A stretch of 50,064 nt of DNA, counting the filler, from an uncultured virus (IMG/VR IMGVR_UViG_2061766007_001805) (lineage: Duplodnaviria; Heunggongvirae; Uroviricota; Caudoviricetes). It is 6 parts of one record of this genome, joined end to end, with 100 filler letters (N's around TTAATTAATTAA, not from the genome) between each part and the next. Parts side by side here need not be neighbours in the genome. Positions count along the whole stretch, not along the records: positions 1 to 18,277 come from IMGVR_UViG_2061766007_001805; 5 more parts are not named here. One strand, 5' to 3'. Positions 1 to 19,657 of the stretch are shown in pieces (the stretch's first letter is position 1; the number at the start of each line of letters is the position of its first letter). Both the position numbers and the translations under genes were made by a program. The notes below the pieces were generated by a model that was given only the letters and a program-made list of their open reading frames with translations, made no database searches and was not told where the DNA came from.

Positions 1-249
1 AACATAAATACAGTCAACACGTTTGTCAGAAACAAATTCTTATACAAATCAATGTTGTTCGTATTTATAATCACTTTGTTGTTTTCGATGTCGATAATAT
101 TCCAATCGTTATCAAACTCTTTATATCTGATCTCATTCCAATCATTCTTTGTACAGAAAAGCGGTTCAGAGTACTTTATGTCATATGCATCGAATACATT
201 GCACACTCTTCTTATAGTGTTTCTGAACAAATTCCATTTGTTCGTTTTG
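1..249 (-). CDS. Internal fragment of the tandem LNEDFFD paralogue family (partial; may be the missing middle of the 988-1648 copy)
   Basis: The minus strand reads KTNKWNLFRNTIRRVCNVFDAYDIKYSEPLFCT...IIDIENNKV...TVFM, matching the middle of the other paralogues. It is bounded by the window start and an N gap. Confidence 0.85.
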
Positions 250-494
250 NNNNNNNNNNAGGAAAAATTCGATTTAGTTCTATAGAGGGAAAGGGAAAGA
301 GATATGAGTAGAGAAAGGGAGAAGGTGAAAGAAGTAGAGAATGTTTTTTTCTTTGCTTCTTTCTTTTTTTTTATTGAAATTTTTTTGAATTTTTTTTTCT
401 TTTTGCTTCTTTTTCTTTGCTTCTTTCTTTTTATGAAAAAGTTCTTTATTTCGTGAAGATGAGAAATCTGCAGATGATGTTGGAAGTCCACCAG

Positions 495-552
495 AGTATC
501 TCTTCAGTATCTGTTTGGTATCTGATTAGTATCTGATGAGAATGATGTTGGA
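495..552. repeat. 11-bp periodic repeat block (AGTATCTxxTx), copy 1 of about 4
   Basis: agtatctcttc/agtatctgttt/ggtatctgatt/agtatctgatg followed by agaatgatgtt. Related blocks lie at about 1766-1822, 3190-3248 and 6912-6950. Confidence 0.8.
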
Positions 553-643
553 GTGCCGGACTGGGAGACATGTACGAAAACGGCAGTTTATTGCGGACTG
601 TCAAGCAACACTACATTGTTCTATAATAAAACAAGTGTCTATT

Positions 644-683
644 AAAAAACAAAGAGCACTATCCTCACGGACCGTACTCTTTT
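644..683 (-). terminator. Probable intrinsic terminator
   Basis: The minus strand reads aaagagtacggtccGTGAggatagtgctcttt, a hairpin followed by GTTTTTT. Confidence 0.5.
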
Positions 684-811
684 AAGATATTAGTTTTAAA
701 AATTCACTACACATATTATACTGTTGTTTTCCGAAAAAGTTCTTTATTGCTATGGCAATCTTAGGTGACATAATACCATAATGACCGTTCACCCTAACTG
801 CGTACCAGGTA

Positions 812-975
812 TGAAAAATGCAGTTTATCACGGAAATTCATCAGGATCCTTTGTAAACATTGCTGATGACAGGAAATTCTTCAGAACTGTACGGAACTCT
901 TCAGAACTTATTCAGAATCCGGCAATCTTCCGTAACTATGTTTCAGGTTAAAAACCAGCAGTCTATTGCGGACTA
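812..975. repeat. About 165-bp non-coding block duplicated at about 3001-3175, with internal 10-11-bp cagaact/ggaact repeats
   Basis: cagttta..acggaaattcatcaggatc...cttcagaactgta.ggaactcttcagaacttattcagaatccgg...cttccgtaactatgtttcaggttaaa is present at both positions. Confidence 0.85.
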
Positions 976-987
976 TTAATCAAGTGG

Positions 988-1648
988 TTAATGATTCTTT
1001 ATGAAATCAAGTAATTCTCTTTCAGCTTCCGCTTTTTCAAATTCCTGTCTGTATTTATATTGTGGAGACAGTAAATATAATATGTTGTCTTTGATGAACC
1101 ACATTGTGGGTTTTATGATAGCCTTTATGTATTCATCATTCATATACATCTTCAGATTCTCATCGTTTATGTAATCCTATTCTTGATTGTCATATACAAA
1201 AACAACATCATGTTTGTATATCATATTCTATAAACTGTTTGCTATTCTATAAAGAAATCTGTATGCTCCCTTTGCTGAATTGAATACAGGCAAATCAATG
1301 NNNNNNNNNNNNNNNNNNNNNNNNNNNNNNNNNNNNNNNNNNNNNNNNNNNNNNNNNNNNNNNNNNNNNNNNNNNNNNNNNNNNNNNNNNNNNNNNNNNN
1401 NNNNNNNNNNNNNNNNNNNNNNNNNNNNNNNNNTTATTCTTTTTATTTTTGTCAAAGCAATTCCAAGTATGTGTGCTCTCATCAAATGGAGTTGAGAATT
1501 TAAAACACAAACACTATTTGTATGACGAGAACATATCCGTTAACAATGATTTTATATCTTTGCTGTTATATGGTTCCTATTCGCTATCGTTCTTCAGATT
1601 GTCATCTGTAATGTCTATATTATCGAAATAGTCTTCATTCAAGAACAT
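988..1648 (-). CDS. LNEDFFD-family paralogue (TAG read as Gln; internal N gap)
   Basis: ATG at 1648 gives MFLNEDYFDNIDITDD...DMFSSYK(TAG)CLCFKFSTPFDE. After the gap it reads IDLPVFNSAKGAYRFLYRIANSL(TAG)...LLSPQYKYRQEFEKA...KNH, ending at TAA 988-990. Confidence 0.85.
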
Positions 1649-1929
1649 ATGTATAGTAGTTTAATATAGTTTCCTTATTTATTCTCTATGTATGATGTCA
1701 GGTAAGTCTAACCAGAGAGCTTATATAAAAACAGCAATATATTATGGATGTCTGAAATGTCATATAGTATCTGATTAGTATCTGTTTAGTATCTCTTCAG
1801 TGTCTGATGAGAATGATGTTTGGTAGTCCGGATAGTCCGGAGAATATTTAACAGCAGAACTGCTATAAAAACAGCAGTTTATTACGGACTGTCAATCACA
1901 TTGTTCTTAACAAAACAATTAACTTGTTA

Positions 1930-2144
1930 GTTAAATAAACTTAAATGATTGTGTGATGTTATTGTATTGTGGTTTATTATTCATACCTTTGCATCAGCAA
2001 AAGCAACAAACCTCAGTCTCTACATAATTGCTGAATAAAGTTAAGATACTGAAACTGAAACAGTTAATTAGAATGTGGAAATTTAGCAGGTAAAAGTTGC
2101 TGAAGATAATGTACTGTTATTCAATTATATAGTGATATAATGAT
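1930..2144 (+). promoter_or_regulatory. CRISPR leader 1 with a Bacteroidota sigma-A -7 element (TACCTTTG, 1984-1991)
   Basis: Closely similar to 7249-7462. TAnnTTTG is the Bacteroidota primary-sigma promoter consensus. The region is AT-rich and abuts repeat 1. Confidence 0.8.
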
Positions 2145-2977
2145 GTCTATACAGTAGCATTCATTTCTACTTATGTAGATGCTAATGGACTCAACAGAAT
2201 CGTAAAGTCTATACAGTAGCATTCATTTCTACTTATGTAGATGTTTAGAGTTTTTTAAACTTTTTTCTGAGTCTATACAGTAGCATTCATTTCTACTTAT
2301 GTAGAGTAGATATCAGAAGATACAGAACGAGTATTTCTTGTCTATACAGTGGCATTCATTTCTACTTATGTAGATACTGCTGCCGAATGTCTATGTCTGA
2401 TGAGTCTATGCAGTGTCATTCATTTCTACTTATGTAGATATACTTATCGACGAGGACAATCCAAAAGTCTATACAGTGACATTCATTTCTACTTATGTAG
2501 ATTACGAAGACATGACCACCCAAGAATGGTACTGTCTATACAGCATTATTCATTTCTACTTATGTAGATTTTAAACGCCACTATAATATACAGAAAGTCT
2601 ATACAGTGTCATTCATTTCTACTTAATGCCTACTTCCATAGGTTGTAGATACTATAGCCACGTTCATTGCGTAAGGTGTCTATACAGTGTTATTATTTCT
2701 ACTTATGTAGATGAAAGTTTTTTCTGATATGCTATGAAAAGTCTATACAGTGTCATTCATTTCTACTTATGTAGATGAAATATATAACAAATCCATTGTA
2801 TTTGTCTATACAGTATCATTCATTTCTACTTAAATACCTACTTCAGTAGGTTGTAGATGTTATACAAACTATTTGAACTATACAGTGTTATTATTTCTAC
2901 TTATGTAGATAGGTTTCTCAAAATGTTACATCTATACAACATCATTCATTTCTACTTAATGCATACTTCCGTATGTA
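2145..2977 (+). CRISPR. CRISPR array 1: type V-A (Cas12a-like) repeat, 13 repeats / 12 spacers, no adjacent cas genes
   Basis: 36-nt repeat GTCTATACAGTAGCATTCATTTCTACTTATGTAGAT starting at 2145, 2207, 2271, 2340, 2404, 2467, 2534, 2597, 2678, 2741, 2804, ~2876 and ~2930. Spacers are unique and mostly 26-31 nt (the last two are shorter). The 3' ATTTCTAC-TTAT-GTAGAT matches the Cas12a handle hairpin. The terminal repeat is degenerate. Confidence 0.95.
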
Positions 2978-3345
2978 CACTCTAATTGTGTTTCGGGTCT
3001 GAAAATACAGTTTATTACGGAAATTCATCAGGATCATTTGTGATCATTACTGATGACGGAAAATCCTTCAGAACTGTATGGAACTCTTCAGAACTTATTC
3101 AGAATCCGGTGATTGATGCCCGGTGATCTTCCGTAACTATGTTTCAGGTTAAATACCGGCAGTATATTGCGGAAGGCTGAAATGGTGTATAGTATCTGAT
3201 TGGTATCTGTTCAGTATTTGATTAGTATCTGATGAGAATGATGTTTGGCAGTCCGGATAGTCTTTAACAGTAACGCTTCTATAAAAACGGCAGTTTATTA
3301 CGGACTATCAAACAACATTACATTATTTTGTAATGAAACAAGTGG

Positions 3346-4122
3346 TTAATGATTCTTTATAAAATCCTGTAATTCTATTTCAGTCTATGCGTTATCAAAT
3401 TCATGTCTGTATTTGTATTGAGGAGACAGTAAACATAATATGTCATTTTTTAGCCACTACATTGTGGGTTTTATGATATCCTTTATGTGTGTATCATTCA
3501 AATATATATCATTGCGGGCATTGACTATATAATCCTATTCTTGATTGTCTTTGTTTAGGTGATATACTTCAACAGCATCATTATTGTATATCATATTCTA
3601 TAAACTGTTTGCCATTCTATAAAGAAATCTATATGCTCTCTTTGCTGAATTGAATACAGGCAAATCAATGAACATGAATGCATTCAACCCGTTTTCTGTC
3701 GGCAAATGCTTATACAACTCAATGTTGTCTGTATTTACAATCATTTTGTTGTTTTCGATGTCAATAATATTCCAATCTTTATCAAACTATTTAGATCTGA
3801 TGTCATACCAATCAAACTTTGTACAAAAAAACAGTTCGGAGTGCTTTAAGCCATATGCATCTAATACTCTGCACACTCTTCTTATAGTGTTTCTGAACAA
3901 ATTCCATTTGTTCGTTTTGTCAAACAGATTCCATGTTTTTTTATATTTTCTGCTATATGGAGTTTGAAATCTAAAACGCATACATTGTTTGTATGACGAG
4001 AACATATCCTTTAACAATGATTTTACATCTTTGTTGTTATCAGTATATAGTTCAGGATTACCGGATTTCAAATCATCATCCTTTATCTCTATGTCATCGA
4101 AGAAATCTTCATTCAATATCAT
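3346..4122 (-). CDS. LNEDFFD-family paralogue, 258 aa with TAG=Gln
   Basis: The ORF track stops at TAG 3787-3789, but homology continues in frame (FDKDWNIIDIENNK...IDLPVFNSAK...LLSPQYKYRHEFDNA...KNH) to TAA 3346-3348. 777 nt with no gap. Confidence 0.9.
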
Positions 4123-4250
4123 TTGTATATGGATAAAGTAGTTTCCTTATTTATTCTCTCTGTATGATGTCAGGCAAGTCTGTTATAAAAAACGGCAGTT
4201 TATTGTGGACTATCAAACAACATTACATTATTTTGTAATGAAACAAGTGG

Positions 4251-5014
4251 TTAATGATTCTTTATAAAATTCTGTAATTCTATTTCAGTCTACGCGTTAT
4301 CAAATTCATGTCTGTATTTGTATTGTGGAGACAGTAAATATGATATATCGTTTTTTATCCACCACATTGTGGGTTTTATGATAGCCTTTATGCGCGAAAC
4401 ATTCAAATATATCTTCAGATTCTCATCGTTTATGTAATCCTATTCTTGATTGTCATATACNNNNNNNNNNNNNNNNNNNNNNNNNNNNNNNNNNNNNNNN
4501 NNNNNNNNNNNNNNNNNNNNNNNNNNNNNNNNCACATGAATGCATACAATCCGTTATTCAGAACCAAATTCTTATACAAATCAATATTGTCCGCATTTAC
4601 AATCACTTTGTTGTTTTCGATGTCGATAATTTTCCAATTTTTATCAAACTCTTTATATCTGATCTCATTCCAATCAGTCATTGTACAGAAAAGCGGTTCG
4701 GAGTACTTTATGCAATATGCATCGAATACACGGCATGCTCTTCTTATCCGGTCTCTGAACAAATCCCATTTGTTTGTTTTGTCAAACAGATTCCATTTAT
4801 CCTTTTTATTTTTGTCAAACAAATTCCAAGTGTGTGTGTTCTCGTCAAATGGAGTTGAGAATTCAAAACACAAACACTGTTTGTATGATGAGAACATATC
4901 CGTTACCAATGATGTTACAACTTTGCTGTTATATAGTTTCAATTCACTATCGTTCTTCAAATCATCATCCTTTAACTCTATGTCATCGAAGAAATCTTCA
5001 TTCAGTATCATCAT
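4251..5014 (-). CDS. LNEDFFD-family paralogue (TAG=Gln; internal N gap)
   Basis: Starts MMILNEDFFDDIELKDD. After the gap the homologous frame reads YDNQE(TAG)DYINDENLKIY...LLSPQYKYRHEFDNA(TAG)TEIELQNFIKNH, ending at TAA 4251-4253. Confidence 0.85.
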
Positions 5015-5128
5015 ATATTAATAAACTTTCCTTATTTATCATTAGGATGAACATGGCAAGTCTAACCAGAGAGCTGCTATAAAAACAACAGTTTATTGCG
5101 GACTTTGTTCTGTAATAAAAACAATTAG

Positions 5129-5926
5129 TTAATGATTCTTTATCAAATCCAGTAATTCTCTTTCAGTATCCGCTTTTTCAAATTCCTGTCTGTATTTATA
5201 TTGTGGAGACAGTAAATATAATATGTCGTCTTTTATCCACCGCATCATTGGTGAATTTATGATAAAATTCATGCATACTTCGTTAAAATACATCTTCAGA
5301 TTGTCATCATTTACATATTCCTATTCTTGATTGTCTTTGTTTAGATGATATACAGCAACAGCATCACGTTTATTGTTTAATATCATATTCTATAAACTGT
5401 TTGCCGTTCTATAAAGAAATCTATATGCACTCTTTGCTGAATTGAATACAGGCAAATCAATGAACATGAATATAATCAACCCGTTTGACGTCAACGCCAA
5501 ATGCTTATAATACTTATTAATGCTGTAATTCGTTTTTATAAGCACTTTATTGTTTTCAATGTCGATAATATTCAAATTGTCACAGGAACCATGACTGATC
5601 TCATTCCAATCGTACATTGTACAGAAAAGCGGTTCAGAGTACTTTATTCCATATGCATCAAATACACGGCACACTCTTCTTATAGTGTTTCTGAACAAAT
5701 TCCATTTGTTTGTTTTGTCAAACAGATTCCAATTGTGTGTGTATGTGTTCTCATCAAATGGAGTTGAAAATTCAAAACACAAACATTGTTTGTATGATGA
5801 GAACATATCCTTTATCAATGTTGTTGTATCTTTATTGACATCGGTATATAGTCCAGTCTTACCGGATTCCAAATCATCATCCTTTAACTCTATGTCATCA
5901 AAGAAATCTTCATTCAGTATCATCAC
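5129..5926 (-). CDS. LNEDFFD-family paralogue, 265 aa with TAG=Gln
   Basis: Reading through TAG 5390-5392 continues NMILNNKRDAVAVYHLNKDNQE(TAG)EYVNDDNLKMYF...LLSPQYKYRQEFEKADTERELLDLIKNH to TAA 5129-5131. 798 nt. Confidence 0.9.
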
Positions 5927-6054
5927 ATATTAATAATCTTTCCTTATTTATTGTCAAGATGAAGACAGCAGTCTAACCAGAGAGCTGCTATAAAAACATA
6001 TGTTTATTGCGGACTGTTAAACAACATTACATTCTTCTGTAATGAAACAAGTGG

Positions 6055-6837
6055 TTAATGATTCTTTATAAAATCCTATAATTCTCTTTCAGTATTTGCT
6101 TTTTCGAATTCCTGTCTGTATTTGTATTGGGGAGACAGTAAATATAATATGTCGTCTTTTATCCACCGCAGTGTTATGGGATTTATGATAGCCTTTATGT
6201 GCGAATTGTTCAAATATATCTTCACATTGTTATTATTTAGATACTAACTTTGATTGTTTTTGTCTATGTGATATACAAAAACAGCATCATCATTACACAT
6301 ACATCGTAAACTGTTTGCCATTCTATAAAGAAATCCATATGCGCTCTTTGCTGAATTGAATACAGGCAAATCAATGAACATAGTTACATTTAACTCGTTT
6401 TCCGCCGTCAAATGCTTATACAGTTTGATGTTATCTGCATATACAATCACCTTATTGTTTTCTATGTTGATAATATCCAAATCGCCATAGAAATTTTTAC
6501 GTCTGATGTCAATCCAATCGAACATTGTACAGAAAAATGGTTCAGAGTACTTTATGTCATACACATCGAATACATTGCACACTCTTCTTATAGTATTTCT
6601 GAACAAATACCATTTGTTTGTTTTGTCAAACAGATTCCATATGTCAAAATTCTAACTGTATCTGTTCTCATCAAATGGAGTTGAGAATCTAAAACACAAA
6701 CACTGTTTGTATGATGAGAACATGTCCTTTATCAATGATTTTGCATCTTTGCTGTCATCAGTATATAGTTCTGATTTACTATTCAGATCATCATCCTTTA
6801 TCTCTATGTCATCAAAGAAATCTTCATTCAGTATCAT
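6055..6837 (-). CDS. LNEDFFD-family paralogue, 260 aa with TAG=Gln
   Basis: Track ORFs 6652-6837 and 6244-6606 are in one frame. TAGs occur at 6652, 6244 and 6076, and the gene ends ...IKNH at TAA 6055-6057. 783 nt. Confidence 0.9.
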
Positions 6838-6852
6838 CTCATATTAATAAAC

Positions 6853-6866
6853 TTTCCATATTTATC
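6853..6866 (-). promoter_or_regulatory. ATAAATA late-promoter-like element upstream of each paralogue (also 1676-1682, 4148-4154, 5033-5039, variant at 5945-5952)
   Basis: ATAAATA(A/T)GGAAA lies about 18-27 nt before each ATG and resembles the T4-type late promoter TATAAATA. Confidence 0.55.
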
Positions 6867-7248
6867 GACAAGATGAAGACTGCAGTCTATTACGGAAGAC
6901 TGAAATGTCATAGAGTATCTCTTCAGTGTCTGATGATAATGATGTCTGGCTGACCGGTTTGTTAGAGATTGTCATATGTTGTCTGGTAGTCCGCGGAAAG
7001 ATTCGGAAGGATTTGGAAACATATGGAAGAACTACGGAAACACTCTGTAAAATCCGCGGAAACATCAGGGGATGACTGCTGGCAGTCCTAAGAGTCTTTA
7101 ACAACAGAGTTGCTATAAAAACTGCAGTTTATTGCAGATGAGAAAGCCGGTTTGTCAGTTAGTCAGTTTGGTAGTCCGGCATTTCAACTGCATCTCTTGA
7201 TAGTGATTCGATGATATTGTTCTGCAATGAAATAATTGACTTTAAGGG

Positions 7249-7462
7249 TTAAATAAACTTAAAATATTGTTCAATAATATTATATTGTGTGTTTTTTATG
7301 TACCTTTGTATCAGCAAAAGCAACGAACTCCAGTCTCCACACAATTGCTTGAGTATGGTTAAGATATTAAGACTGAAAGAGTTAATTAGAATGTGGAAAA
7401 TTAGCAGGTAAAAGTTGCTGAAGATAGTGTGCTGTTATTCAATTATATAGTGATATAATGAA
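7249..7462 (+). promoter_or_regulatory. CRISPR leader 2 with a TACCTTTG -7 element (7301-7308)
   Basis: Homologous to leader 1, including ttagcaggtaaaagttgctgaaga and tgttattcaattatatagtgatataatga just before repeat 1. Confidence 0.8.
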
Positions 7463-8273
7463 GTATATACAGTCTCATTCATTTCTACTTATGTAGATTA
7501 TAATAATCACTATAATTTTTATTACAGTCAATACAGTCTCATTCATTTCTACTTATGTAGATTTCTCTGATCTGCGTAGAGAGACCAGTACGGTCTTGAC
7601 ATTATTTCTACTTAATGCTTACTTCAGTAAGTTGTAGATTTAGACATCATACGCTCTGCTTGTATGTCTGTCTCATTCATTTCTACTTAATGCCTACTTC
7701 AGTATGTTGTAGATAAGTATGACCAGCCAACTATCTCATACGGTCTATACAGTATCATAATTTCTACTTATGTAGATACGGTATCTCTGAGCAAGGAACC
7801 AAACCAGTCTATACAGTATCATTCATTTCTACTTAATGCTTACTTCAGTAGGTTGTAGATGACGTGTTGACCGTATTGGTAGCATTAATGTCTATACAGT
7901 GTCATTATTTCTACTTATGTAGATCTGGTACTTTTGTCGTTTCCTGATTTTGTCTATACAGTATCATTCATTTCTACTTAATGCCTACTTCCATAGGTTG
8001 TAGATTATGCAAAAACTCCGCAGAAGTGAGTAGTATATACAATGTCATTCATTTCTACTTATGTAGATTGTCTGCTTGTACAATTCTTATATGGTGATCT
8101 ATACAGTGTCATTCATTTCTACTTATGTAGATTTTACATAATAATTCATCAATGAACATCTGTTTATACAGTGTTATTCATTTCTACTTATGTAGATATT
8201 GGTCAGTCTTCCACGATAGGTATAAGGTCTATATAGTATCATTCATTTCTAATTAATACATACTTCCGTATGT
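7463..8273 (+). CRISPR. CRISPR array 2: type V-A (Cas12a-like) repeat, 12 repeats / 11 spacers, no adjacent cas genes
   Basis: Repeats at 7463, 7527, ~7592, 7666, 7743, 7807, 7890, 7952, 8033, 8097, 8162 and 8227 (degenerate). Spacers are about 26-30 nt, and none is shared with array 1. Confidence 0.95.
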
Positions 8274-8327
8274 CCGGCACTGTACAGTACAGGCAATGGT
8301 TGTAGTTCAACCAAGCCGAATGCATAT

Positions 8328-8380
8328 GTCCCCAGATCGTCTGCTTCTTCGGTTTTCCCGGAAGACGACAATCTGGGGAC
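8328..8380. terminator. Strong hairpin between array 2 and the convergent minus-strand operon
   Basis: Inverted repeat gtccccagat...atctggggac. Confidence 0.55.
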
Positions 8381-8411
8381 TCTCATTGTTCTCTGCTGAA
8401 TAGTCACGCAA

Positions 8412-8529
8412 TTTTATAAGGATTGTTTTCTTCTGTTACTTCGATTGATAAATCTTTGGGAATTAAATTCATTATGACAACCTTGCACTCAAATCACGCA
8501 AAAAGTAAATCTATGTCTTGTTGTGCCAT
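8412..8529 (-). pseudogene. Internally deleted remnant of the EENNPYK phage protein family
   Basis: MAQQDIDLLFA(TGA)...NLIPKDLSIEVTEENNPYK. It retains only the family's N- and C-terminal motifs. Confidence 0.6.
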
Positions 8530-8531
8530 AA

Positions 8532-8930
8532 TTATCTTGCTCTATTTTTCATTGTCTTGCGGTAAACTTTATATTCATCAGATGTAAGAGTTCTGATGAA
8601 TAATTGTCCGTCAAAAACACATTCTTCATTACTATAATCATAATTAACTTTTTTTGGTTCAAGTAACGGATGTGTCATGTCAGGATAAAATGATATATCA
8701 GTTTTACCATTGTACATTTCCACCACATTGTGATATGCTTTAATGGTTATTTTATCAATAGGTGTGTCTGGATTATGCTCATTTTCATCAAATGATGCTA
8801 TTGCACTTATAAATTTGCAAGCCCAAGCAAAATTAGGAAAATCTTTATCCCAATATCCAAATAGGAGAACTTTATTTTTATACTTTTCAAGTTCTCCTAA
8901 TGTTTTAATTTCTATGTAGTCTTTATCCAT
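8532..8930 (-). CDS. Hypothetical phage protein
   Basis: Intact ORF MDKDYIEIKTLGEL... within the minus-strand operon. Confidence 0.75.
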   Translation of the reverse strand: MDKDYIEIKTLGELEKYKNKVLLFGYWDKDFPNFAWACKFISAIASFDENEHNPDTPIDKITIKAYHNVVEMYNGKTDISFYPDMTHPLLEPKKVNYDYSNEECVFDGQLFIRTLTSDEYKVYRKTMKNRAR

Positions 8931-8969
8931 AATCAATATCTAATGTTTCTTTTGTAAATTATTCGTTAA

Positions 8970-9389
8970 TCATATATAAGGATTGTTTTCTTCGGTTACT
9001 TCGATTGCTAAACTTTTGGGAATTAAGTCAAAGATGTCGAAATGTTTTTTAAGAAGCCAGTCGATTGCATCTGACATTATAATTGCCTGATTTTTATATC
9101 CGATTTCAGAATTACCTTTCCAAGCAAATTCGTCAATAACGCAAAAGTTGTCAAACTCTTTCTTTTCTTCATCAGTCATGCTTGACATCGGACGAAGATA
9201 AGGTTTCACAAACTCCCAAGCACCCTCTTCTTTAATCTGATGGAGTAGAGATAAAGTTAATTCTTCCTTATTCCACTTTATTTTACACTCTATAAAATCA
9301 ATCTCTCCTTCTGCCATACTAACTATTATATTATATGGCAATGACATGGACAGATACCGTAACAATAGATTTTTATTTTCTTGTTTCAT
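8970..9389 (-). CDS. Phage hypothetical protein, LLLRYLSM...KPYLRPMSSM...EENNPY family
   Basis: Shares motifs with 11153-11569 and 11678-12091. Confidence 0.85.
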   Translation of the reverse strand: MKQENKNLLLRYLSMSLPYNIIVSMAEGEIDFIECKIKWNKEELTLSLLHQIKEEGAWEFVKPYLRPMSSMTDEEKKEFDNFCVIDEFAWKGNSEIGYKNQAIIMSDAIDWLLKKHFDIFDLIPKSLAIEVTEENNPYI

Positions 9390-9391
9390 AA

Positions 9392-9799
9392 CTATTCCTT
9401 TGTTAGTTCCTTTTTATCTGCATTCCACTCATAACCTGCTTCTCTCATCTTTGTAAACAAGAGGTCACGCTGTTCTTTGGTTGCTGGATAAACGTCAAGA
9501 TGAGTAAAAGGCAATGTTCTATCATAAACTTCAAATCCATATATTGATAATCCACAATAAGCAAATGGGTATTTTCCTTCTTCTACAGTATTATCAAAAA
9601 TACATATACGGTTATCTTTAGTTGCAAGCACATCACCATCATTGGCATCTTCGATAGTCCACAATTTGAAATTATCATACAAATCTTTAACGATTGCTAT
9701 GTGACAGCCATATTCATCTTGTAAACACCCTTCTTTTGCACAATAATATGCAGTATTCTTGTCAAAAGTAACACCTTTACCAAAGAAGTCTTTAGTACA
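9392..9799 (-). CDS. C-terminal part of a modular phage protein (LWTIEDA..GDVL / PATKEQRDLLF repeat family); probably continues 10621-11139
   Basis: Reads CTKDFFGKGVTFDKNTAYYC...PATKEQRDLLFTKMREAGYEW. About 140 bp is nearly identical to 13580-13722. Confidence 0.75.
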   Translation of the reverse strand, partial: CTKDFFGKGVTFDKNTAYYCAKEGCLQDEYGCHIAIVKDLYDNFKLWTIEDANDGDVLATKDNRICIFDNTVEEGKYPFAYCGLSIYGFEVYDRTLPFTHLDVYPATKEQRDLLFTKMREAGYEWNADKKELTKE

Positions 9800-10090
9800 N
9801 NNNNNNNNNTCCTCCCAATATTTACCGTTACATTTAAGTTTTCTCTCTAACAGGCTGTCAGTATCAAGCCTCTCACAGTAATGAAACCCAGGGCAATGTG
9901 GGAATGTCTCTGCCCACAGCCATCTCTTGCAGCCCGAACAANNNNNNNNNNAAGAAATGCCAAAGAATCAGACTCTGTTTTTTCGACATAGCATTCTGGA
10001 TTTGGGTATGCGTAAAAACCTGCACACTTTCTATATAGTTTTGCACACCCGTGACAATAGCCTTCTTCTTTCTTACGTGATTTTGCCATA

Positions 10091-10294
10091 TCATTCTTTT
10101 ACGTTATCGTCAATATAATCCCTGAGAAATGACAGTTCCTGATGGGCAGAACAAACTAATCTATCAGCTTCATAAGTACAATCACGAATAGCATCTACAT
10201 CTCTCACTCTTCTTGCCCTAACAAGTTCCCATGTCCACTTGTCAATGTCTGCACAGAGCCTGTCTATGTCTTGTAAAACCTCTTGCTTTGTCAT
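10091..10294 (-). CDS. Hypothetical phage protein
   Basis: 67-aa ORF tightly packed against its neighbours. Confidence 0.65.
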   Translation of the reverse strand: MTKQEVLQDIDRLCADIDKWTWELVRARRVRDVDAIRDCTYEADRLVCSAHQELSFLRDYIDDNVKE

Positions 10295-10295
10295 A

Positions 10296-10589
10296 CTATT
10301 TACCTTTCTGTGCTTTAAATCGTTTCAAAACATCCTCATACACCTTCTGTTGGCCTTCTATTGTCTGAAAGGCATAAAGATACTTATTCATAGCATCTTT
10401 TATACATTTATGGATTACTAGCATATCTTCCCAAGTAAGGCTTTCTTTTTCCAAATCCACCTCTTTCACTTCGAGGGTGTCGATGAAAGAAAGCATATCT
10501 TTCAGGCATACCAAATAACCACTATGATGCTCTTTTATTCTTCTCTCTATCTCCGCTACTAAAGCGGATTTTGGTATATACTGTTCCAT
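10296..10589 (-). CDS. Hypothetical phage protein (YIPKSALVAEIERR type)
   Basis: 97-aa ORF with operon-like spacing. Confidence 0.75.
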   Translation of the reverse strand: MEQYIPKSALVAEIERRIKEHHSGYLVCLKDMLSFIDTLEVKEVDLEKESLTWEDMLVIHKCIKDAMNKYLYAFQTIEGQQKVYEDVLKRFKAQKGK

Positions 10590-10620
10590 AACTCAATTAT
10601 TTTAAATGTTNNNNNNNNNN

Positions 10621-11139
10621 TTGATACCACTTACTAACCTTAAACTTCGGCTCAACTTTTTCTTTGTTGATTGTTTCAAGTGCTGATTTGTCCTGTAACT
10701 TCTGCTCACCTTGCTTTTCAAGCATAAAGCTATCCAATTCCGAAAGTTCTATATAGTCACATTCAAAGCTAAGACATGAACTTAAACTATATGTAAGACC
10801 ATTCTTTATTAAAAAGACAGGTATGTCATTCCCATTTCCTGCAATACCGTCTTTCCAATGTTTCCAAATAGAAGTTTTCTTTGATTGTCCTTGCTTTTCA
10901 AGCCAATCTGCCCATCTTCTATAATCATTTGCATCAACACAGACTTGTTTTCCATCTCTTCTATTAATGCAATGTTCTAACAGTTCTTTCCTTATTTGTT
11001 CATCTCCACTCTCTTTGAGTTCTGGAAAAATAAATTCAGCAATTTCCTGTGGAGTATCGGAAACATAATGACCGTATTTTCCAGCCATCCATTCTTTTGC
11101 TCTTTCAAGAGCTTCTTTGTATTTTTGTTCGTAATCCAT
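10621..11139 (-). CDS. N-terminal part of a modular phage protein (YEQKYKEALERAK / IFPELKES / WLEKQGEQK motifs)
   Basis: Motifs are shared with 12924-14535. Truncated by an N gap at KFKVSKWYQ. Confidence 0.8.
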
Positions 11140-11152
11140 AATTATTCCTCCG

Positions 11153-11569
11153 TTATTTATAAGGATTGTTTTCTTCTGTTACTGCGATTGCTAAACCTTT
11201 TGGAATTAAGCCAAGAAAATCAAAACGATGAGCATTAAGCCAATTAATTTGTTTAATACTTAATATACAAGTTGATCCTTTGTTGCCCAGCCAAAGCATG
11301 GTGTCAGGTATTAGGATAAACTCATTTATTTCTTCCTCTGTCATGCTTGACATCGGACGGAGAAATGGCTTGACAATATCAATCTTAACCTTAGAAATTA
11401 TATCTTCTCCATCCATATTTATACCTATCAATATCAATGCAATGCCCTTATATGGTTGTACTGATAGCAAGAAATATGGTTCATTGTCCTCATCTGTCTT
11501 AACTTGTAAGTCATACGGCAATGCCATGGACAAATACCTTAACAATAAATCTTTATCTTCTTGTTTCAT
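11153..11569 (-). CDS. EENNPYK-family phage protein
   Basis: MKQEDKDLLLRYLSMALPY...KPFLRPMSSMTEEE...EENNPYK. Confidence 0.85.
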   Translation of the reverse strand: MKQEDKDLLLRYLSMALPYDLQVKTDEDNEPYFLLSVQPYKGIALILIGINMDGEDIISKVKIDIVKPFLRPMSSMTEEEINEFILIPDTMLWLGNKGSTCILSIKQINWLNAHRFDFLGLIPKGLAIAVTEENNPYK

Positions 11570-11677
11570 TTTTTATAAATTTTATATTCATAATGCCATT
11601 CTCCATCTGCATAATATTCATTTGTAATTCTGCGTCCAAAAGCATCTTTATCTTCTTGTTTCATAACTAATCCTCCG

Positions 11678-12091
11678 TTATTTATAAGGATTGTTTTCTT
11701 CGGTTACTTTAATTGCAAGACCTTTGGGAATTAAGCCAAAGATGTCAAAATGATTATTTAGAAGAAAAAGCAGTCCTTCTGATGTATAAACAAGATTATA
11801 AGGTATTCCATTTGCATGTAAAAAACTGCCTGTATTTGTATAAGCATTCATTTCTTCATCCGTTATGCTTGACATTGGACGGAGATATGGCTTGCAATAA
11901 TCTACTTCATAATAGCCGTCACCTTCATCATAAACCGGGCAATCAATATGCAATACATCACCATCAATACCCAATAATTTATATGCATAGATGTCATCAA
12001 ATGTTTGACATTTAACACCAGACAGCAATGCCATGGACAAATACCGTAACAGTAATTCTTTATCTTGCTGTGTCATAATAAAGTTTGTCAT
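11678..12091 (-). CDS. EENNPYK-family phage protein
   Basis: MTQQDKELLLRYLSMAL...KPYLRPMSS...EENNPYK. Confidence 0.85.
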   Translation of the reverse strand: MTNFIMTQQDKELLLRYLSMALLSGVKCQTFDDIYAYKLLGIDGDVLHIDCPVYDEGDGYYEVDYCKPYLRPMSSITDEEMNAYTNTGSFLHANGIPYNLVYTSEGLLFLLNNHFDIFGLIPKGLAIKVTEENNPYK

Positions 12092-12161
12092 AATCGGTTA
12101 TTCTTGTTTAATTATCATCAGGTTCTCTCTTTCTGAGGCTAAACCTTTATGATTTCTATTG

Positions 12162-12169
12162 CAAAGATA
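12162..12169 (-). promoter_or_regulatory. Bacteroidota sigma-A -7 element (TATCTTTG) heading the 12.1-8.4 kb operon; similar minus-strand elements at 20250, 24012, 38006, 40565, 42944 and 46920
   Basis: TAnnTTTG consensus in AT-rich intergenic DNA upstream of gene starts. Confidence 0.65.
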
Positions 12170-12251
12170 TATAAAAAATTTGAAACTGTAAATTTTTAAT
12201 TAATATATTAGGAAAATTTAACAATATGTTTTAGGTAAGTCTGTCGCAGTA

Positions 12252-12470
12252 TTGCCTGATTCACATCAACATTTTACAGTTTATGAAAAAGTCAACGTTG
12301 ACACTTTTGTCTGTTATCAGGATTATTTACTAATGGTGTGGTTCATCATAATGACAATTGGGTTTGTTATAGATGACATTTATACTAATATGATTGAAGG
12401 ATTCTGGAGTCATTTCAAAAAGATGGTTTTCTGCACATATCATTATGTATCAAAGTGCTCTAAGACTTAA
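12252..12470 (+). pseudogene. IS1595-family transposase remnant
   Basis: YTNMIEGFWSHFKKMVFCTYHYVSK resembles the IS1595/ISXO2 motif HTNxIEGFWSxxKRxxxGxYHxxS. The ORF is short and degraded. Confidence 0.7.
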
Positions 12471-12765
12471 TATTCTTGAAGAACTTTTCAGAGAAAAATA
12501 TAGGAAAACATATTACTAAATGGACTGAATAATCAATAAGACGATTTGTGAAAGACAATAACATTAAGACAAGAAATGATTTATGAATTAAAGTAAGAAG
12601 TGCTTATAATGCAGCAAGACAACTCAATATTTTTAATAAATTATTTCCATAGAACAATTAAAGAATACTCAATATGAGCATTCTTTAATGAAAGTATATT
12701 GTCACAAAAATGTTTAATAATGAAACCATTTGTGACAACAGGTATATAATTACTTTTTGAAGCCA

Positions 12766-12800
12766 AATAAAAATGCCCTGCTTATTTGTTCAAGCAGGGC
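12766..12800 (-). terminator. Intrinsic terminator
   Basis: gccctgctt/aagcagggc stem followed on the minus strand by ATTTTTATTT. Confidence 0.7.
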
Positions 12801-12923
12801 GAGCAAAGGAATGCAGTCTTTATTCAAGCGACTGTTTTTTTTTGAATTGATATTCTATATCATATTCTCTATCATAGATGACGGCTCCCGGCTCCGCATT
12901 TTTAATAATTAACNNNNNNNNNN

Positions 12924-14535
12924 TAACTTTTTAAGTTGTTCCAATAATTCCTTTGATGCCTTATATTGCCAAGAGCCTTCAAAAGTTGAATGGACTTGAT
13001 ATTCAAGAGCCTGTATCTGCTCGTCACTCGGCTTCCAAGTGTATCTTTCTTTGAGGGATTTGAGCCATGATATAACTTTATCATGATACGCTTGTGGGAT
13101 GATGCCTGCTCCCAATCTGTTATGATAGTCATTTTGCACATTTTTAATCATCTGATTATCCTCTTCACTCCACTCTTGCTTTGGTTGTGGTGTAAACTTA
13201 CTAAGTTCAATCATAGCAGATTGTAGAGCATTTGTAAGATTATCATTACTTTGTTCTCTAACAATCTTAGCAAGTCCGACTTTCTCAAACACATCAGCAA
13301 TANNNNNNNNNNNNNNNNNNNNNNNNNNNTCTTCTTCAACTCTTTCTTTTCAAAGTCAAAGGTATATCCTGCTTCAGCCATTGCTTTTTCAAGAATATCA
13401 CGTTGCTCTTTAGTTGCAGGATAGATTTCAGAACCTGTTGCAATATATGAATTAGTGTTTATACGGAATCCTAATTCAATATCATAATGACAATAGCATG
13501 TAGGTTTTCCGTTAGAATTAATCTTTTTAAATATAAATACCAAATCTTCTGTNNNNNNNNNNNNNNNNCATCTTGGATAGTCCATAATTTGAAATTATCA
13601 TACAAATCTTTAACGATTGCTATGTGACACCCATATTCACCTTGTAAGCACCCTTCTTTTGCGCAATAATACGCAGTATTCTTGTCAAAAGTAACACCTT
13701 TACCAAAGAAGTCTTTAGTACANNNNNNNNNNNNNNNNNNNNNNNNNNNNNNNNNNNNNNNNNNNNNNNNNNNNNNNNNNNNNNNNNNNNNNNNNNNNNN
13801 NNNNNNNNNNNNNNNNNNNNNNNNNNNNNNNNNNNNACCTTGTTTTTCAAGCCAAGCAAGAATATCTTCACCTTTAATTCCATCTATATCAATCGTAGAT
13901 TTGTGAAATCTTATAAGTGCCTTCCTTATCCGCTCATCCTCTTCACTCCAAGCAGGTTTCTGTTCATTTTGCTCTCGACACCACTTCTCGCAATCTTCCT
14001 TTTTATAAAAACAATTACGCAAGAAACATAGTAATTCCTCGTTATTATGAAATGCTTCTATTGAGCCATAAAAACTATATGGAAAACACTCATATTTATT
14101 TGAACACTCATTCTTTATTGGGTGATAGATAGTAAAGTCGTTATCTTCTTCATTAGCATCAGCAGGCTTCTGCTCACCTTGCTCAAAGCATTTGGCAACA
14201 GCAATATCCATAGCCTCTTGTTGAGTTAAGTCATTTATGGATTTCTGCTCACCTTGCTTTTCAAGCCCTGCTTTATAACCAAGTCGGAATCCTTCTCTTT
14301 TTTCATGGTCAATGGCGTATGGAATGTTTTCAAGCCAAGCAATCCAAGGGGTCACTTTTTCATCTGTTATATTTTCGTTCACAAAAGGAGATTTAAGAAA
14401 GCTAATCAATGCTTTCTTTATCTTCTCATCCTCGCTCTCTGCAAGTTCGGGGAAGATTTCTTCTAATCTTTCTTTTTGCTCTTTTGACAATTCTTGGCTA
14501 TTCAATAGAGCAATAACTTTTTCTTTATAATCCAT
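12924..14535 (-). CDS. Large modular phage protein (gap-fragmented; WLEKQGEQK, WSEEDE, PATKEQR and WKPSDEQ motifs)
   Basis: Track ORFs 13471-14583, 13211-13585 and 12909-13292 are consecutive pieces separated by N gaps. ATG at 14535 (MDYKEKV). Confidence 0.7.
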
Positions 14536-14960
14536 AATTATTCTTCTTTTAAGTTGTACATTCCCTCTGGGGCTTTTTTGCACAAGTTAGCCATTCGTCA
14601 CACATAGAACCGTTGCAAGCATTAACAACATGACCTTTGTGGTGGTATGGTACTCTCGCACAAAGGTCTTTCAATAATAAGTCTTTACCTTCTATTGATA
14701 GTTCTTTCATNNNNNNNNNNNNNNNNNNNNNNNNNNNNNNNNNNNNNNNNNNNNNNNNNNNNNNNNNNNNNNNNNNCAATTACACCAATTAAATCTTGTA
14801 AAAAATTATCCATAATCACAACATTTTAAGTTCGTTCAATTTTTCAATCATAGCCACACAAGCATCAATAGGATTGTCTGCAATACATAATAATTCTTCG
14901 TTACCATAAGCAATTGAATATTTTTCATTTTCTTTTTGTAAATTAGGTGCATAATAATTC

Positions 14961-15155
14961 TTAATTATTCCTTCTGGCAAAACACCAAGCAATGCTGCAA
15001 GACTCCAGCAACCACAAAGTTCTTCTGGNNNNNNNNNNNNNNNAGGGCTTGCCTAAACCATTACTAACCCAAGACATATCCGCACTTTCAAGCGGTAGTA
15101 TTTCTGCCAACTTACGACTTTGTTCTACAGAGGTGAAACTCTTAATTGTTACCAT
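14961..15155 (-). CDS. Hypothetical phage protein (TSVEQSRKLAEILPLESADM type), gap-broken
   Basis: ORF start overlaps the upstream stop. The frame is uncertain after the N gap. Confidence 0.55.
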   Translation of the reverse strand: MVTIKSFTSVEQSRKLAEILPLESADMSWVSNGLGKPXXXXXXRRTLWLLESCSIAWCFARRNN

Positions 15156-15384
15156 AACATTTTAACTTAAATAATTTGTGTTTTGTTATCTCCTCATCTG
15201 CTTTATAGCCCCTGTCTTCTTGCGACTTAAAGCAATACCACATACAGATTTGATAGGCTATTGAGCCTTCTTTTGGCTGAAACTTATTAGTCTTTCTGTA
15301 TTTAGTAAGCCCGTAATTCCACATATCGGAAAATGCTGCCTTTTTAATCTTTCTTGGCAGTTTTGGTTTCTTAACTGTTGCCAT
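15142..15384 (-). CDS. Hypothetical phage protein
   Basis: 80-aa ORF MATVKKPKLPRKIKK. Confidence 0.65.
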   Translation of the reverse strand: MATVKKPKLPRKIKKAAFSDMWNYGLTKYRKTNKFQPKEGSIAYQICMWYCFKSQEDRGYKADEEITKHKLFKLKCYGNN

Positions 15385-15390
15385 AGTTAT

Positions 15391-15783
15391 TCAAATTAAA
15401 TTTTCAAGACAATACTTTATTGCTGCTTCAGCGGCTTCTNNNNNNNNNNCTCTAAAGCTTCTGTTATCTATAAGACTATGTATAGCATAATACCAAGTGA
15501 GTTTATTTCTCATATCCCCTTCTGGCCAATAAGGACTAATACATATTGTCCAATTATGTACTTCCCTCAACCACTTCATTGCCATTTGAAGAGTTGGGGC
15601 AGCAATATATTTATCTTTATTATATACACCAGCTGGATATTGATGAGCAAAGTGATGTTCACCGTTATCATCTACACTTATGCTATAAATCATTTCTGTT
15701 GTGAAATATCCGCAATTATCTTGTATCTGCTGAAAACCTTTATCTTTAAGAAGTTTTGCTATTTCAAAACTAACGTAATCCTC
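15391..15783 (-). CDS. Hypothetical phage protein (EDYVSFEIAKLLKDKGF...APTLQMAMKWLRE), 5' end in gap
   Basis: Coherent ORF downstream of the N gap. Confidence 0.7.
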   Translation of the reverse strand, partial: EDYVSFEIAKLLKDKGFQQIQDNCGYFTTEMIYSISVDDNGEHHFAHQYPAGVYNKDKYIAAPTLQMAMKWLREVHNWTICISPYWPEGDMRNKLTWYYAIHSLIDNRSFRXXXXEAAEAAIKYCLENLI

Positions 15784-16140
15784 NNNNNNNNNNNNNNNNN
15801 NNNNNNNNNNNNNNNNNNNNNNNNNNNNNNNNNNNNNNNNNNNNNNNNNNNNNNNNNNNNNNNNNNNNNNNNNNNNNNNNNNNNNNNNNNNNNNNNNNNN
15901 NNNNNNNNNNNNNNNNNNNNNNNNNNNNNNNNNNNNNNNNNNNNNNNNNNNNNNNNNNNNNNNNNNNNNNNNNNNNNNNNNNNNNNNNNNNNNNNNNNNN
16001 NNNNNNNNNNNNNNNNNNNNNNNNNNNNNNNNNNNNNNNNNNNNNNNNNNNNNNNNNNNNNNNNNNNNNNNNNNNNNNNNNNNNNNNNNNNNNNNNNNNN
16101 NNNNNNNNNNNNNNNNNNNNNNNNNNNNNNNNNNNNNNNN

Positions 16141-16484
16141 TTGTATGAATAAGTACACCATTCCAGATTATCTACTTTATTATTATATTTGTTCTCGTCT
16201 TTATGATTTACACATGGCAAACTATTAGGATTTTCAATAAAAGTAATAGCAATTAAGTAATGAACATTGTATGTTATATGGTGTTTATTTTTAAACAAAC
16301 CAACCGTTAAATATTGTCCAAAACCTTTTATTAAAGAAAGAAGCCTTTCTTTTCTGTGGATAATTTTGCCGTTTTTATAATAGATAACCCTTGCACATGA
16401 TTTTATCCTACCGTATGAACTTGCTTGGTATATTCCTTCATAATTCGGAATATCTTTCCATGTTTCTTCTGTAATTGTTGCCAT
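16141..16484 (-). CDS. NUMOD4-HNH homing endonuclease (3' end in gap)
   Basis: ETWKDIPNYEGIYQASSYGRIKS (NUMOD4) and VHYLIAITFI...VNHKDENKYNNKVDNLEWCT (HNH). Confidence 0.9.
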
Positions 16485-16497
16485 AGTTATTTCTCCT

Positions 16498-16713
16498 TTA
16501 TAATTCTAAAGTTTCAAAATGTTTCAATAAGTCAATACACACATCGGCCTTACCTATATAGAAAGGCCATCGAAAATCCAAGTCCTGTCTCCTTGGCTTT
16601 GGCTTGAACTTGTCAGCGACCTTACAATAGTGGTCGCGGCATTCTTCCAGTGCTTTCTTGGAAATTGTTATCTTATCATCACAGACAACATATTCGTCTT
16701 TTTCTAACACCAT
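16498..16713 (-). CDS. Hypothetical phage protein
   Basis: 71-aa ORF in the operon. Confidence 0.6.
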   Translation of the reverse strand: MVLEKDEYVVCDDKITISKKALEECRDHYCKVADKFKPKPRRQDLDFRWPFYIGKADVCIDLLKHFETLEL

Positions 16714-16724
16714 ACGCTTTGTTT

Positions 16725-17300
16725 TTAAATGTTTACGTAATCTATCAACAGTATCTCCTTGTCTGTTTCTTTTGCACGAAGATTTTTATTGTGTAGACGT
16801 GCATAGAGCCACGGCCACCAATCATCGAGAATCTTCGGAGGGCAGACGGATGCGTACTTCTCGCAGCACGACGGGTCGTAATAATCGAAGTGATAGTCCC
16901 GCTCCCAACTGAACAGGTTGCGACCGCACCAGAAGTGGATGTTGTCGTACTCATCCTCTATTAGCTGGCAGAAATGCTGGAAGAGTTCTTTGCGACGGTG
17001 CTTGTACTGCCGTGCCGAGCGCACCTCGTGGATGACGCGGACGTAGCAGCCGCCCTGTTCGTTGAGCCACGCGAGGTCTTCGTAGACCTGCGACGCGGTG
17101 AATCCGTACTCGACGATGCCGTGGGCGATGATGCCAAGTCCGTATTTGTTGAAGCGCACCCGCAAGTCAAAGCACCTCACACCGAGTTCGTACTGCTCCT
17201 TGATAGTCTTGCGCTGACACTTTGCCGTGAAAGCTATCGGCTTCATCCACCATTTCTTGACTGGTAGATAAGACAAAGAATTGTGAGAACCTAATATCAT
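16725..17300 (-). CDS. PI-PLC X-domain (phosphatidylinositol phospholipase C-like) phosphodiesterase
   Basis: GSHNS...CQRKTIKEQYELGVRCFDLRV...IAHG matches the PI-PLC catalytic-domain signature (HNS / Q...Q...GvRxxDlR / HG). Confidence 0.75.
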   Translation of the reverse strand: MILGSHNSLSYLPVKKWWMKPIAFTAKCQRKTIKEQYELGVRCFDLRVRFNKYGLGIIAHGIVEYGFTASQVYEDLAWLNEQGGCYVRVIHEVRSARQYKHRRKELFQHFCQLIEDEYDNIHFWCGRNLFSWERDYHFDYYDPSCCEKYASVCPPKILDDWWPWLYARLHNKNLRAKETDKEILLIDYVNI

Positions 17301-17302
17301 AG

Positions 17303-17692
17303 TCAATAGCAATAAATGTAAATTGAATCACGAATGATTATAGCCGAATCTTTTGGCGTGCATGCTTGTTCGTATTTAAGTAGTTCGTACGCAAGACTGT
17401 CTCGTTGATGCTCGTACGTCTTGGACTTTACTTTTATGCTTATGCTTACCATGAGCCAAAATGCGGTCAACATTGTAGCGACAACAGCAACGGACAATAG
17501 CGGGCGCATACGTATCAACTTGGCAAGAAACACACCTAACTTGTACAATATCGTAGCGATTCCCACAAAGATAGACGCAAGAACGCCGAGAATACCATTT
17601 AGAAGCGTTCTGACAGCATTTCTTGTGTATCGCAGCCAACCATTAAGGTCGTCGAATAAAAAGCGCTTAGAACCGAAATTTAACATTTCCAC
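17303..17692 (-). CDS. Hypothetical membrane protein
   Basis: Two hydrophobic segments. Confidence 0.65.
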   Translation of the reverse strand: MEMLNFGSKRFLFDDLNGWLRYTRNAVRTLLNGILGVLASIFVGIATILYKLGVFLAKLIRMRPLLSVAVVATMLTAFWLMVSISIKVKSKTYEHQRDSLAYELLKYEQACTPKDSAIIIRDSIYIYCY

Positions 17693-17881
17693 GTTTCTCA
17701 GTCGTCGAAGTTCTTGAACACGCCTCCGTTCTTTACGAACTCAAGTATGGGTACTTGGAGGTACATCTTGTTGTTGTAGACAAACGGAACAGCTTTTTTG
17801 AACATCTTCTCGTACTCTTCGTCAACAAGAACGACGTGTTTCGGAAGGCGCTNNNNNNNNNNAGATAGCCGACTCCCTGAC

Positions 17882-18277: not shown

Positions 18278-18377
18278 NNNNNNNNNNNNNNNNNNNNNNN
18301 NNNNNNNNNNNNNNNNNNNNNTTAATTAATTAANNNNNNNNNNNNNNNNNNNNNNNNNNNNNNNNNNNNNNNNNNNN

Positions 18378-19656: not shown

Positions 19657-19657
19657 T

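Follow-up and report, generated by a model that had tools for sequence, protein, structure and literature searches.

We analyzed a 50,064-nucleotide stretch of DNA, hereafter the window, from an uncultured virus of the Caudoviricetes (IMG/VR IMGVR_UViG_2061766007_001805), which contains two paralogous CRISPR arrays of type V-A, the Cas12a type. Cas12a handles are among the most uniform of CRISPR repeats, and their loop is treated as a short variable linker. In eight of the 25 repeats of the window this loop is enlarged by an insert that can form a second, nested hairpin. The long form of the repeat is real; it lies on a phage-like contig from cattle rumen and is present in several rumen samples.

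Results

Both arrays are on the plus strand, with their repeats in CRISPR RNA (crRNA) orientation. Array 1 (2145..2976) comprises 13 repeats and 12 spacers, and array 2 (7463..8273), which is reproduced by Logan contigs, comprises 12 repeats and 11 spacers. Array 1 is preceded by an AT-rich leader (2032..2144, plus strand) with a TATAAT-like box, read by eye, immediately 5' of the first repeat; this leader is 90% identical to positions 7350-7504, where the leader of array 2 lies (7350..7462, plus strand), and both belong to family D10. Seventeen repeats are short and have the canonical V-A form (about 36 nucleotides (nt), ATTTCTAC, a short loop and GTAGAT): their length is 36 nt, with a sub-variant of 35 nt, and their 3' end is ATTTCTAC-TTAT-GTAGAT, in which stem and loop read TCTAC-TTAT-GTAGA. 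Four of the 35-nt repeats, each directly after an internal long repeat (2677-2712, 2875-2910, 7742-7777 and 7889-7924), are one base shorter before TTTCTAC. In the other eight repeats the handle does not have a loop of 3-5 nt; either 22-23 nt separate the arms of the stem or the 3' arm is absent. Position -19 is C or U, not A, in most copies of the repeat. The 23 spacers are all different, and the two arrays have none in common; 17 of them measure 26-29 nt, and four are short (16, 19, 21 and 23 nt), those of 16 and 19 nt following repeats A1R11 and A1R12 of array 1. All 25 handle-like elements of the window fall within the two arrays and none outside, as do all eight occurrences of the insert motif. 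Some 55 nt 3' of array 2's terminal repeat (about 8330-8379), a GC-rich long inverted repeat was noticed by eye, which may act as terminator for that array.

Six of the eight long repeats are internal and measure 54-55 nt. Array 1 contains A1R8 (2597..2650, plus strand; 54 nt, insert 2626-2643), whose inner stem consists of 5 base pairs (bp) and a C.A mismatch at the loop end and whose 3' 35 nt are identical to those of A2R8, and A1R11 (2804..2858, plus strand; 55 nt, insert 2833-2851), which has one extra A and a 6-bp inner stem, ACCTAC/GTAGGT. Array 2 contains A2R3 (7586..7639, insert 7615-7632, inner stem GCTTAC/GTAAGT), A2R4 (7661..7714, insert 7690-7707), which is the sole copy with an internal C.U mismatch, A2R6 (7807..7860, insert 7836-7853, inner stem GCTTAC/GTAGGT with a U-G pair) and A2R8 (7952..8005, insert 7981-7998), all on the plus strand; in A2R3 and A2R4 the 5' part of the repeat has decayed through deletions and the handle is intact. 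The terminal repeats of both arrays, A1R13 (2930..2976, plus strand, inner stem GCATAC/GTATGT) and A2R12 (8227..8273, plus strand, with a mutated outer 5' arm, TCTAA, as well), are of the long type too; they carry the same insert, stop at its 3' end and lack the closing TGTAGAT.

An earlier note on this DNA, made without database searches (the original prediction), had listed eight repeats with an inserted hairpin, and its layout and all of its coordinates proved correct. The eight inner stems that it quoted are exact in our alignment, including GCCTA-CTTCCA-TAGGT (twice), ACATAC-TTCC-GTATGT and the mismatched GCCTAC-TTCA-GTATGT. The interspersion of long and short repeats that it described is borne out by the order of repeats in both arrays, and simple leader-proximal duplication cannot produce such an order. 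It had also remarked that the terminal copies lack GTAGAT. The absence itself was found, but there is nothing unusual in it: among the 11 loci examined, the last repeat had a broken hairpin in all seven natural V-A arrays for which the far end was captured (L013, L027, L038, L041, L047, L048 and L051). The terminal copies described here resemble these degenerate repeats (e.g. that of L013) in their disrupted hairpin, of which they lack the 3' handle arm, and differ from them in that the inner hairpin's 3' end is exactly where both of them stop, while their downstream flanks are unrelated.

In the long repeats the loop TTAT is replaced by TTA, 18 nt and T, with the insert located between what we take to be loop nucleotides -8 and -7 in the usual Cas12a numbering. 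The insert has the same length as the 18-nt handle of the short repeats (ATTTCTACTTATGTAGAT) and is identical to it, in register, at 11-13 of 18 positions, a match equaled by 2-104 of 20,000 shuffles. With the same length and an in-register match beyond that of shuffled sequences, the long repeat can be described as a handle within a handle; its sequence marks the insert as a copy of the 18-nt handle that has diverged but kept the register, placed within the loop of that handle, and the earlier suggestion of a nested copy of the CTAC..GTAG handle is upheld by this match. Compared with the parent handle, both partners of the base pair next to the stem end have been replaced (U-A to C-G), and the neighboring U.U has become G.U, extending the inner stem to 6 bp. 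Both outer arms, the first and last U of the loop, A(-18) and U(-1) are kept in the long repeats, and within the insert TAC/GTA and the loop TTC are invariant in all eight copies.

The inner element has a handle-like geometry of its own, with an AAU lead-in, a stem of 5-6 bp and a 4-nt loop starting with U. This geometry would suit the handle of a second, different RNA-guided effector, in which case the long repeats would serve two enzymes. We consider this highly improbable, given that no array of such handles was found in IMG/VR, where the inner-handle pattern gave 15 single matches and no cluster, and that no Cas family was matched in the whole window by any of 51 open reading frames (ORFs) compared with Pfam or any of 63 ORFs of at least 120 amino acids (aa) compared with PADLOC. 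Moreover, the inner stem is too variable for a handle.

Part of the region 6900-9700 was present in 20 public runs from 16 studies, mostly bovine gut metagenomes by record, and four of these were compared in detail. Array 2, long repeats and terminal copy included, is covered with 0 differences by independent Logan contigs that come from the probable source sample (X1, records 4-7), and one joint in X1 reproduces array 1's succession of long repeat, spacer and 35-nt repeat. In a second study (X3), a DNA contig (record 19) contains A2R8 from 7963 onward with the entire insert, as well as the entire terminal copy of array 2, and has one repeat-spacer unit deleted. Further contigs from X3 join the ends of long repeats to other repeats via different spacers of 26-27 nt, and the extra-A form, as in A1R11, accounts for most of the depth at 7688 (50.7 of 55.4). 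A metatranscriptome library belonging to a third study (X6) yielded a 304-nt contig (record 25) that includes the complete A2R8 (7952-8005) with 0 differences and stops at 8256, the first insert base of the terminal repeat of array 2. The RNA runs did not cover the flanks 7100-7650 and 8310-8960, an absence that carries no evidential weight. That the long repeats are an assembly artefact is ruled out by the independent Logan contigs with 0 differences and by the contigs from other studies.

The existence of a nested second hairpin, as originally proposed, is supported by the minimum-free-energy folds, in which it is predicted in seven of eight copies, the exception being A2R4 with its C.U mismatch. 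Fold z-scores relative to shuffled sequences are weak and range from -0.2 to -2.7, the latter for A1R13. In an alignment of the eight sequences, 93.8% of the inner-helix cells are paired. One of the six inner pairs has changed on both sides (columns 35-46), and it occurs as CG in three copies, AU in two, UA in one and UG in one, with a C.U mismatch in the remaining copy. A second variable inner pair is GU in six copies and AU in two, and in the two identical copies, A1R8 and A2R8, the loop is closed by C.A. For covariation the score was 0.156, compared with 0.086 for shuffles, of which 8 of 500 reached 0.156, although this control ignores relatedness. The two AU copies count as one event, because both are terminal repeats of duplicated arrays. 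The earlier claim of compensatory change in the third pair is suggestive insofar as one pair displays four pair types, but its force is reduced, since this is a single pair in related copies and is matched by 8 of 500 shuffles. Among the reconstructed stem substitutions between copies, five of seven keep or restore pairing, whereas a random single change would do so with a frequency of 0.19-0.39 (binomial p 0.013-0.15). Selection on pairing in the inner stem is likely; template-switch correction of quasi-palindromes could mimic such pairing.

The outer handle displays 2 differences in 436 positions over the 25 repeats, and none of these in the six internal long copies, whereas the insert displays 16 differences in 144 positions, distributed over 5 variable columns, and is thus approximately 24 times more variable. 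In the outer 3' arm of the long copies (42 positions), approximately 4 changes would be expected at the rate of the insert and 0 were seen. The absence of changes in the outer handle of the six long copies indicates that the outer hairpin is kept as strictly as in short repeats. These figures bear on the possibility that the long repeats are dead, that is, a one-off nested duplication tolerated in decaying orphan arrays, with pairing that reflects recent origin or quasi-palindrome correction. Signs of decay are present in the arrays, in the four short spacers and the two repeats with 5' deletions; furthermore, the long copies are located mostly in the older, trailer-side part, and the covariation statistics are marginal. 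It is nevertheless difficult to reconcile dead repeats with an unchanged outer arm next to an insert divergence of approximately 9%, with an allele found in other studies beside other spacers and as a 55-nt variant, or with the retention of long repeats by both of two arrays that have no spacer in common. We therefore regard this explanation as improbable.

With respect to the origin of the long repeats, leaders that are 90% identical and the lack of a common spacer indicate that the two arrays are old duplicates with complete spacer turnover. The long repeats have their own 5' signature (CAGTATCATTC in four of eight), which indicates that they form one clade and rules out independent insertion into each repeat. 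The repeat directly after an internal long repeat is of the 35-nt type in four of six cases, compared with one of 17 others (hypergeometric p ~0.008), suggesting that long repeat, spacer and 35-nt repeat travel as a cassette. Recombination between the arrays of co-infecting relatives is the simplest source of the interspersion.

The window is a pseudomolecule, in which five six-frame-stop linkers (N44-TTAATTAATTAA-N44, at 18278-18377, 24178-24277, 32207-32306, 35888-35987 and 43208-43307) join separate contigs of a draft or bin. As the linkers separate the pieces, gene neighborhood across them is artificial, and for the arrays, both of which are on the first piece (1-18277), only these 18.3 kb of truly linked DNA constitute true genomic context. 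There are 65 N runs in all, of which the 55 besides the linkers are scaffold gaps; the ORFs are short because of these runs, and alternative genetic codes opened no long frames. The first piece looks phage-like, with a NUMOD4/HNH homing endonuclease and several genes matched in PHROGs only. Genes for HNH homing endonucleases occur at four positions (15759-16484, 37272-37913, 39657-40595 and 42032-42667), three of them with NUMOD4. Together with DnaN, RNase H, a serine recombinase and a product carrying an RNA polymerase alpha C-terminal domain (20748-21500), all encoded in the window as well, they make up a gene complement typical of large phages, although it is spread across stitched pieces. 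No cas12a, cas1, cas2 or cas4 was found near the arrays when the ORFs of the window were compared with Pfam and PADLOC.

Both arrays are embedded in an array of genes, with at least six tandem units between and before them (1-7100, minus strand). The units between the arrays (2977..7100, minus strand) measure approximately 900 bp and hold one minus-strand gene of no known family each; they are described here simply as context. The gene copies encode 111-194 aa and several are broken, whereas their relatives encode 135-269 aa and are found in metagenomes only. For this family, the paralogue protein of the original prediction, no match was obtained in Pfam, PHROGs or PADLOC, and there was no sign of RNA binding. 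A recurrent motif of approximately 30 nt (CTATAAAAAC.GCAGTTTATT.CGGAC; 543-607, 1834-1898, 3250-3314, 5048-5112, 5959-6023 and 7084-7148) is present at every boundary between tandem units and upstream of each leader. Its minus-strand sequence looks terminator-like, with a run of T after a small hairpin. Short tandem repeats of 11 nt (TAGTATCTGAT) adjoin three copies of this motif.

Searches for relatives of the long repeat returned eight loci in IMG/VR, all of them chance matches in coding sequence without a second handle nearby, and none in JGI metagenome contigs. The short repeat had no match in IMG/VR, in genome contigs (GTDB species genomes) or in metagenome contigs. The 18-mer handle was found at 51 genome loci, 12 of which had at least two handle-like matches; none of these 12 handle-array loci, which scans for short patterns had picked up, had the 5' repeat part described here or a loop of more than 6 nt. 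In IMG/VR there were no loci related to the two array-flanking proteins, a megablast of 8300-20000 and a tblastn of the 637-aa protein against phages gave no match, and neither did Rfam. When possible hosts were searched for the 5' repeat pattern with up to two mismatches, matches were obtained in 0 of 5 genomes, in 3 of 401 (control 4) and in 1 of 401 (control 2), which are chance levels. Regarding spacer targets, blastn of both arrays against phages gave weak matches alone (E 0.3-0.9), the best of which, 23 nt long and to Lak phages, spans the border between a repeat and a spacer; the plasmid collection had no match to the arrays, two spacers located after long repeats had no exact match in IMG/VR, and no spacer had a self-target within the window.

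Solitary Cas12a handles (AATTTCTACTTATGTAGAT followed by AAA) were observed just upstream of genes in approximately 20 viral loci of IMG/VR (L060-L079). Among these loci are about 11 near-identical contigs of approximately 49-58 kb, which belong to one dataset, as well as three contigs of huge size (224, 441 and 640 kb), and the 441-kb contig has at least five solitary copies. The solitary handles look like Racr or Cracr-type units.

Discussion

We propose, tentatively and with slightly less than even confidence, that the long repeats still function as handles for Cas12a and that their extra hairpin protrudes from the apex of the loop, which is exposed to solvent. According to this proposal one repeat allele arose once, when the 18-nt handle was duplicated inside its own loop, and it would later have spread as whole repeat units. 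The arrays, which have no cas genes of their own, would presumably be served by a Cas12a acting in trans, provided either by the host or by another part of the phage. The extra hairpin would be located at the apex of the loop, where contacts with Cas12a are expected to be few. Since the long repeats retain both outer arms and the bases at either end of the loop, with the insert at the apex, processing and guide loading should continue, perhaps less efficiently, and the products would be crRNAs with a protruding stem. We infer Cas12a binding, processing and the reason for the inner pairing; for the latter, we suggest that the inner stem stays paired because only a self-folding insert would let the 5-bp outer stem close, and selection on structure would then require no ligand.

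Published work on crRNA loops is consistent with this proposal. The loop of the Cas12a crRNA is described as solvent accessible, and ErCas12a crRNAs with loop extensions of 5 nt, 10 nt or an MS2 hairpin still formed insertions and deletions, though fewer than the wild type (PMC11031708). For the LbCas12a crRNA, all four bases are reported to be tolerated at each position of the loop (PMC12508434).

Several observations weigh against the proposal, and it should be interpreted with corresponding caution. The covariation concerns one pair among eight related sequences, and gene conversion from short repeats could also keep the outer arms uniform. The predicted probability of the outer stem with the native insert was above the mean for shuffled inserts in four of six copies, the direction expected under the proposal, but this is not significant, and 8-28% of shuffled inserts equaled the native insert in closure of the outer stem. 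Furthermore, the predicted outer stem is poor in A1R8 (0.19) and A2R8 (0.05), in part because cross-pairing is possible between inner and outer arms. With the engineered loop extensions activity was lower, and the long repeats could thus be partly disabled. The contig from the RNA library reveals no processing, strand or level, and it could stem from DNA carry-over. Finally, no cas12a, host or spacer target was found in our searches, and consequently no effector is known to read these repeats.

An alternative that places the function in the inner hairpin itself is that it serves as a module, either as a tag that a phage or host protein reads on part of the phage guides, as protection against RNase or for tuning of Cas12a, and that there are two working classes of crRNA. 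Its pairing is kept amid sequence drift around an invariant core, and the allele persists across several studies and years beside different spacers. Moreover, the long repeats form one clade that moves as a cassette with the 35-nt repeat. These observations do not call for a ligand, and no candidate binding protein was found; the neighboring tandem gene family matches no family in the databases searched. An insert so much more variable than the outer handle, without a match in Rfam, also fits poorly with a module of this kind, and we regard it as unlikely. The same doubtful standing applies to the more specific idea that the nested hairpin acts in nature as a tag or as a second handle on a subset of phage-encoded guides, read by a second protein such as a phage factor or another Cas12-family effector, or that it is a switch of Cas12a between productive and decoy loading.

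A further possibility is that the long repeats act as decoys or brakes, titrating Cas12a in the manner of RNA anti-CRISPRs, through loading in the wrong register on the inner hairpin or through misfolding. The inner hairpin with its AAU lead-in would mimic a handle of normal size, and the guide would then start with the outer 3' arm. The insert does copy the handle in length and register, and the cross-pairing of inner and outer arms, with a weak predicted outer stem in A1R8 and A2R8, would be compatible with misfolding. Phage repeat mimics directed against Cas12a are known, namely Racr (PMC10651486) and Cracr (bioRxiv 10.1101/2024.10.29.618823), and solitary Cas12a handles are common in IMG/VR contigs. 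However, Racr and Cracr are reported to be solitary repeats with their own promoter and terminator, whereas the long repeats are members of regular arrays with normal spacers. In addition, a pair at which the inner stems differ from one another is constant in the outer handle throughout the 25 repeats, and a phage that carries guides gains little from blocking the enzyme it borrows. On balance we find a decoy function improbable, and retain as our preferred explanation that the long repeats are working handles with a protruding hairpin.

The arrays can be compared with known systems at several levels. They resemble canonical type V-A arrays in their 36-nt short repeats, with the same 18-mer handle as the natural arrays of the 12 genome loci, in the prevailing spacer length, in the upstream leader and in the degenerate terminal repeat. 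They differ in that eight repeats have a loop of 22-23 nt with an inner hairpin, whereas loops in the natural arrays examined do not exceed 6 nt, and in the lack of cas12a, cas1, cas2 and cas4 nearby. The loop-extended and MS2 crRNAs likewise have a hairpin at the apex of the handle loop with the outer stem kept, and were active; these are man-made, and in tests of ErCas12a in human cells their activity was reduced (PMC11031708), whereas the insert described here is natural, derived from the handle and known from sequence alone.

Host-type repeats on a mobile element without cas genes are shared with viral mini-arrays (PMC10120712), Racr (PMC10651486) and Cracr (bioRxiv 10.1101/2024.10.29.618823), and viral repeats of this sort presumably borrow or disturb the Cas12a of the host. 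Racr and Cracr are there described as single repeat-like units with their own terminator, in contrast to the full arrays of 12-13 repeats found here; a single unit outside an array, as in Racr, was not observed in the window. The guides of Cracr are reported to match a cas promoter in part, beside a PAM, and the 16- and 19-nt spacers after A1R11 and A1R12 are at most reminiscent of these.

The original prediction knew of no described natural equivalent, and in agreement with this we found no natural Cas12a repeat with an extended, structured loop in the open-access texts searched, and a nested hairpin is likewise absent from the texts consulted on phage-borne arrays and repeat mimics. A Cas12a repeat with a nested hairpin thus seems undescribed.

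In conclusion, a natural allele with an extra hairpin in the loop, persisting across rumen samples, indicates that nature has explored the very site that engineers use for insertion of aptamers. The arrays also provide a test case of cas-less phage arrays that evolve through shuffling of cassettes and not through leader-end addition. A natural scaffold on which to build tagged or orthogonal Cas12a guides would be at hand if the long handles work, and if they are decoys, they would represent a new form of RNA anti-CRISPR concealed within an array. Should the nested hairpin be read as a tag or second handle, it would be a natural counterpart of aptamer-tagged crRNAs and add a new layer to the use of host CRISPR by phages.

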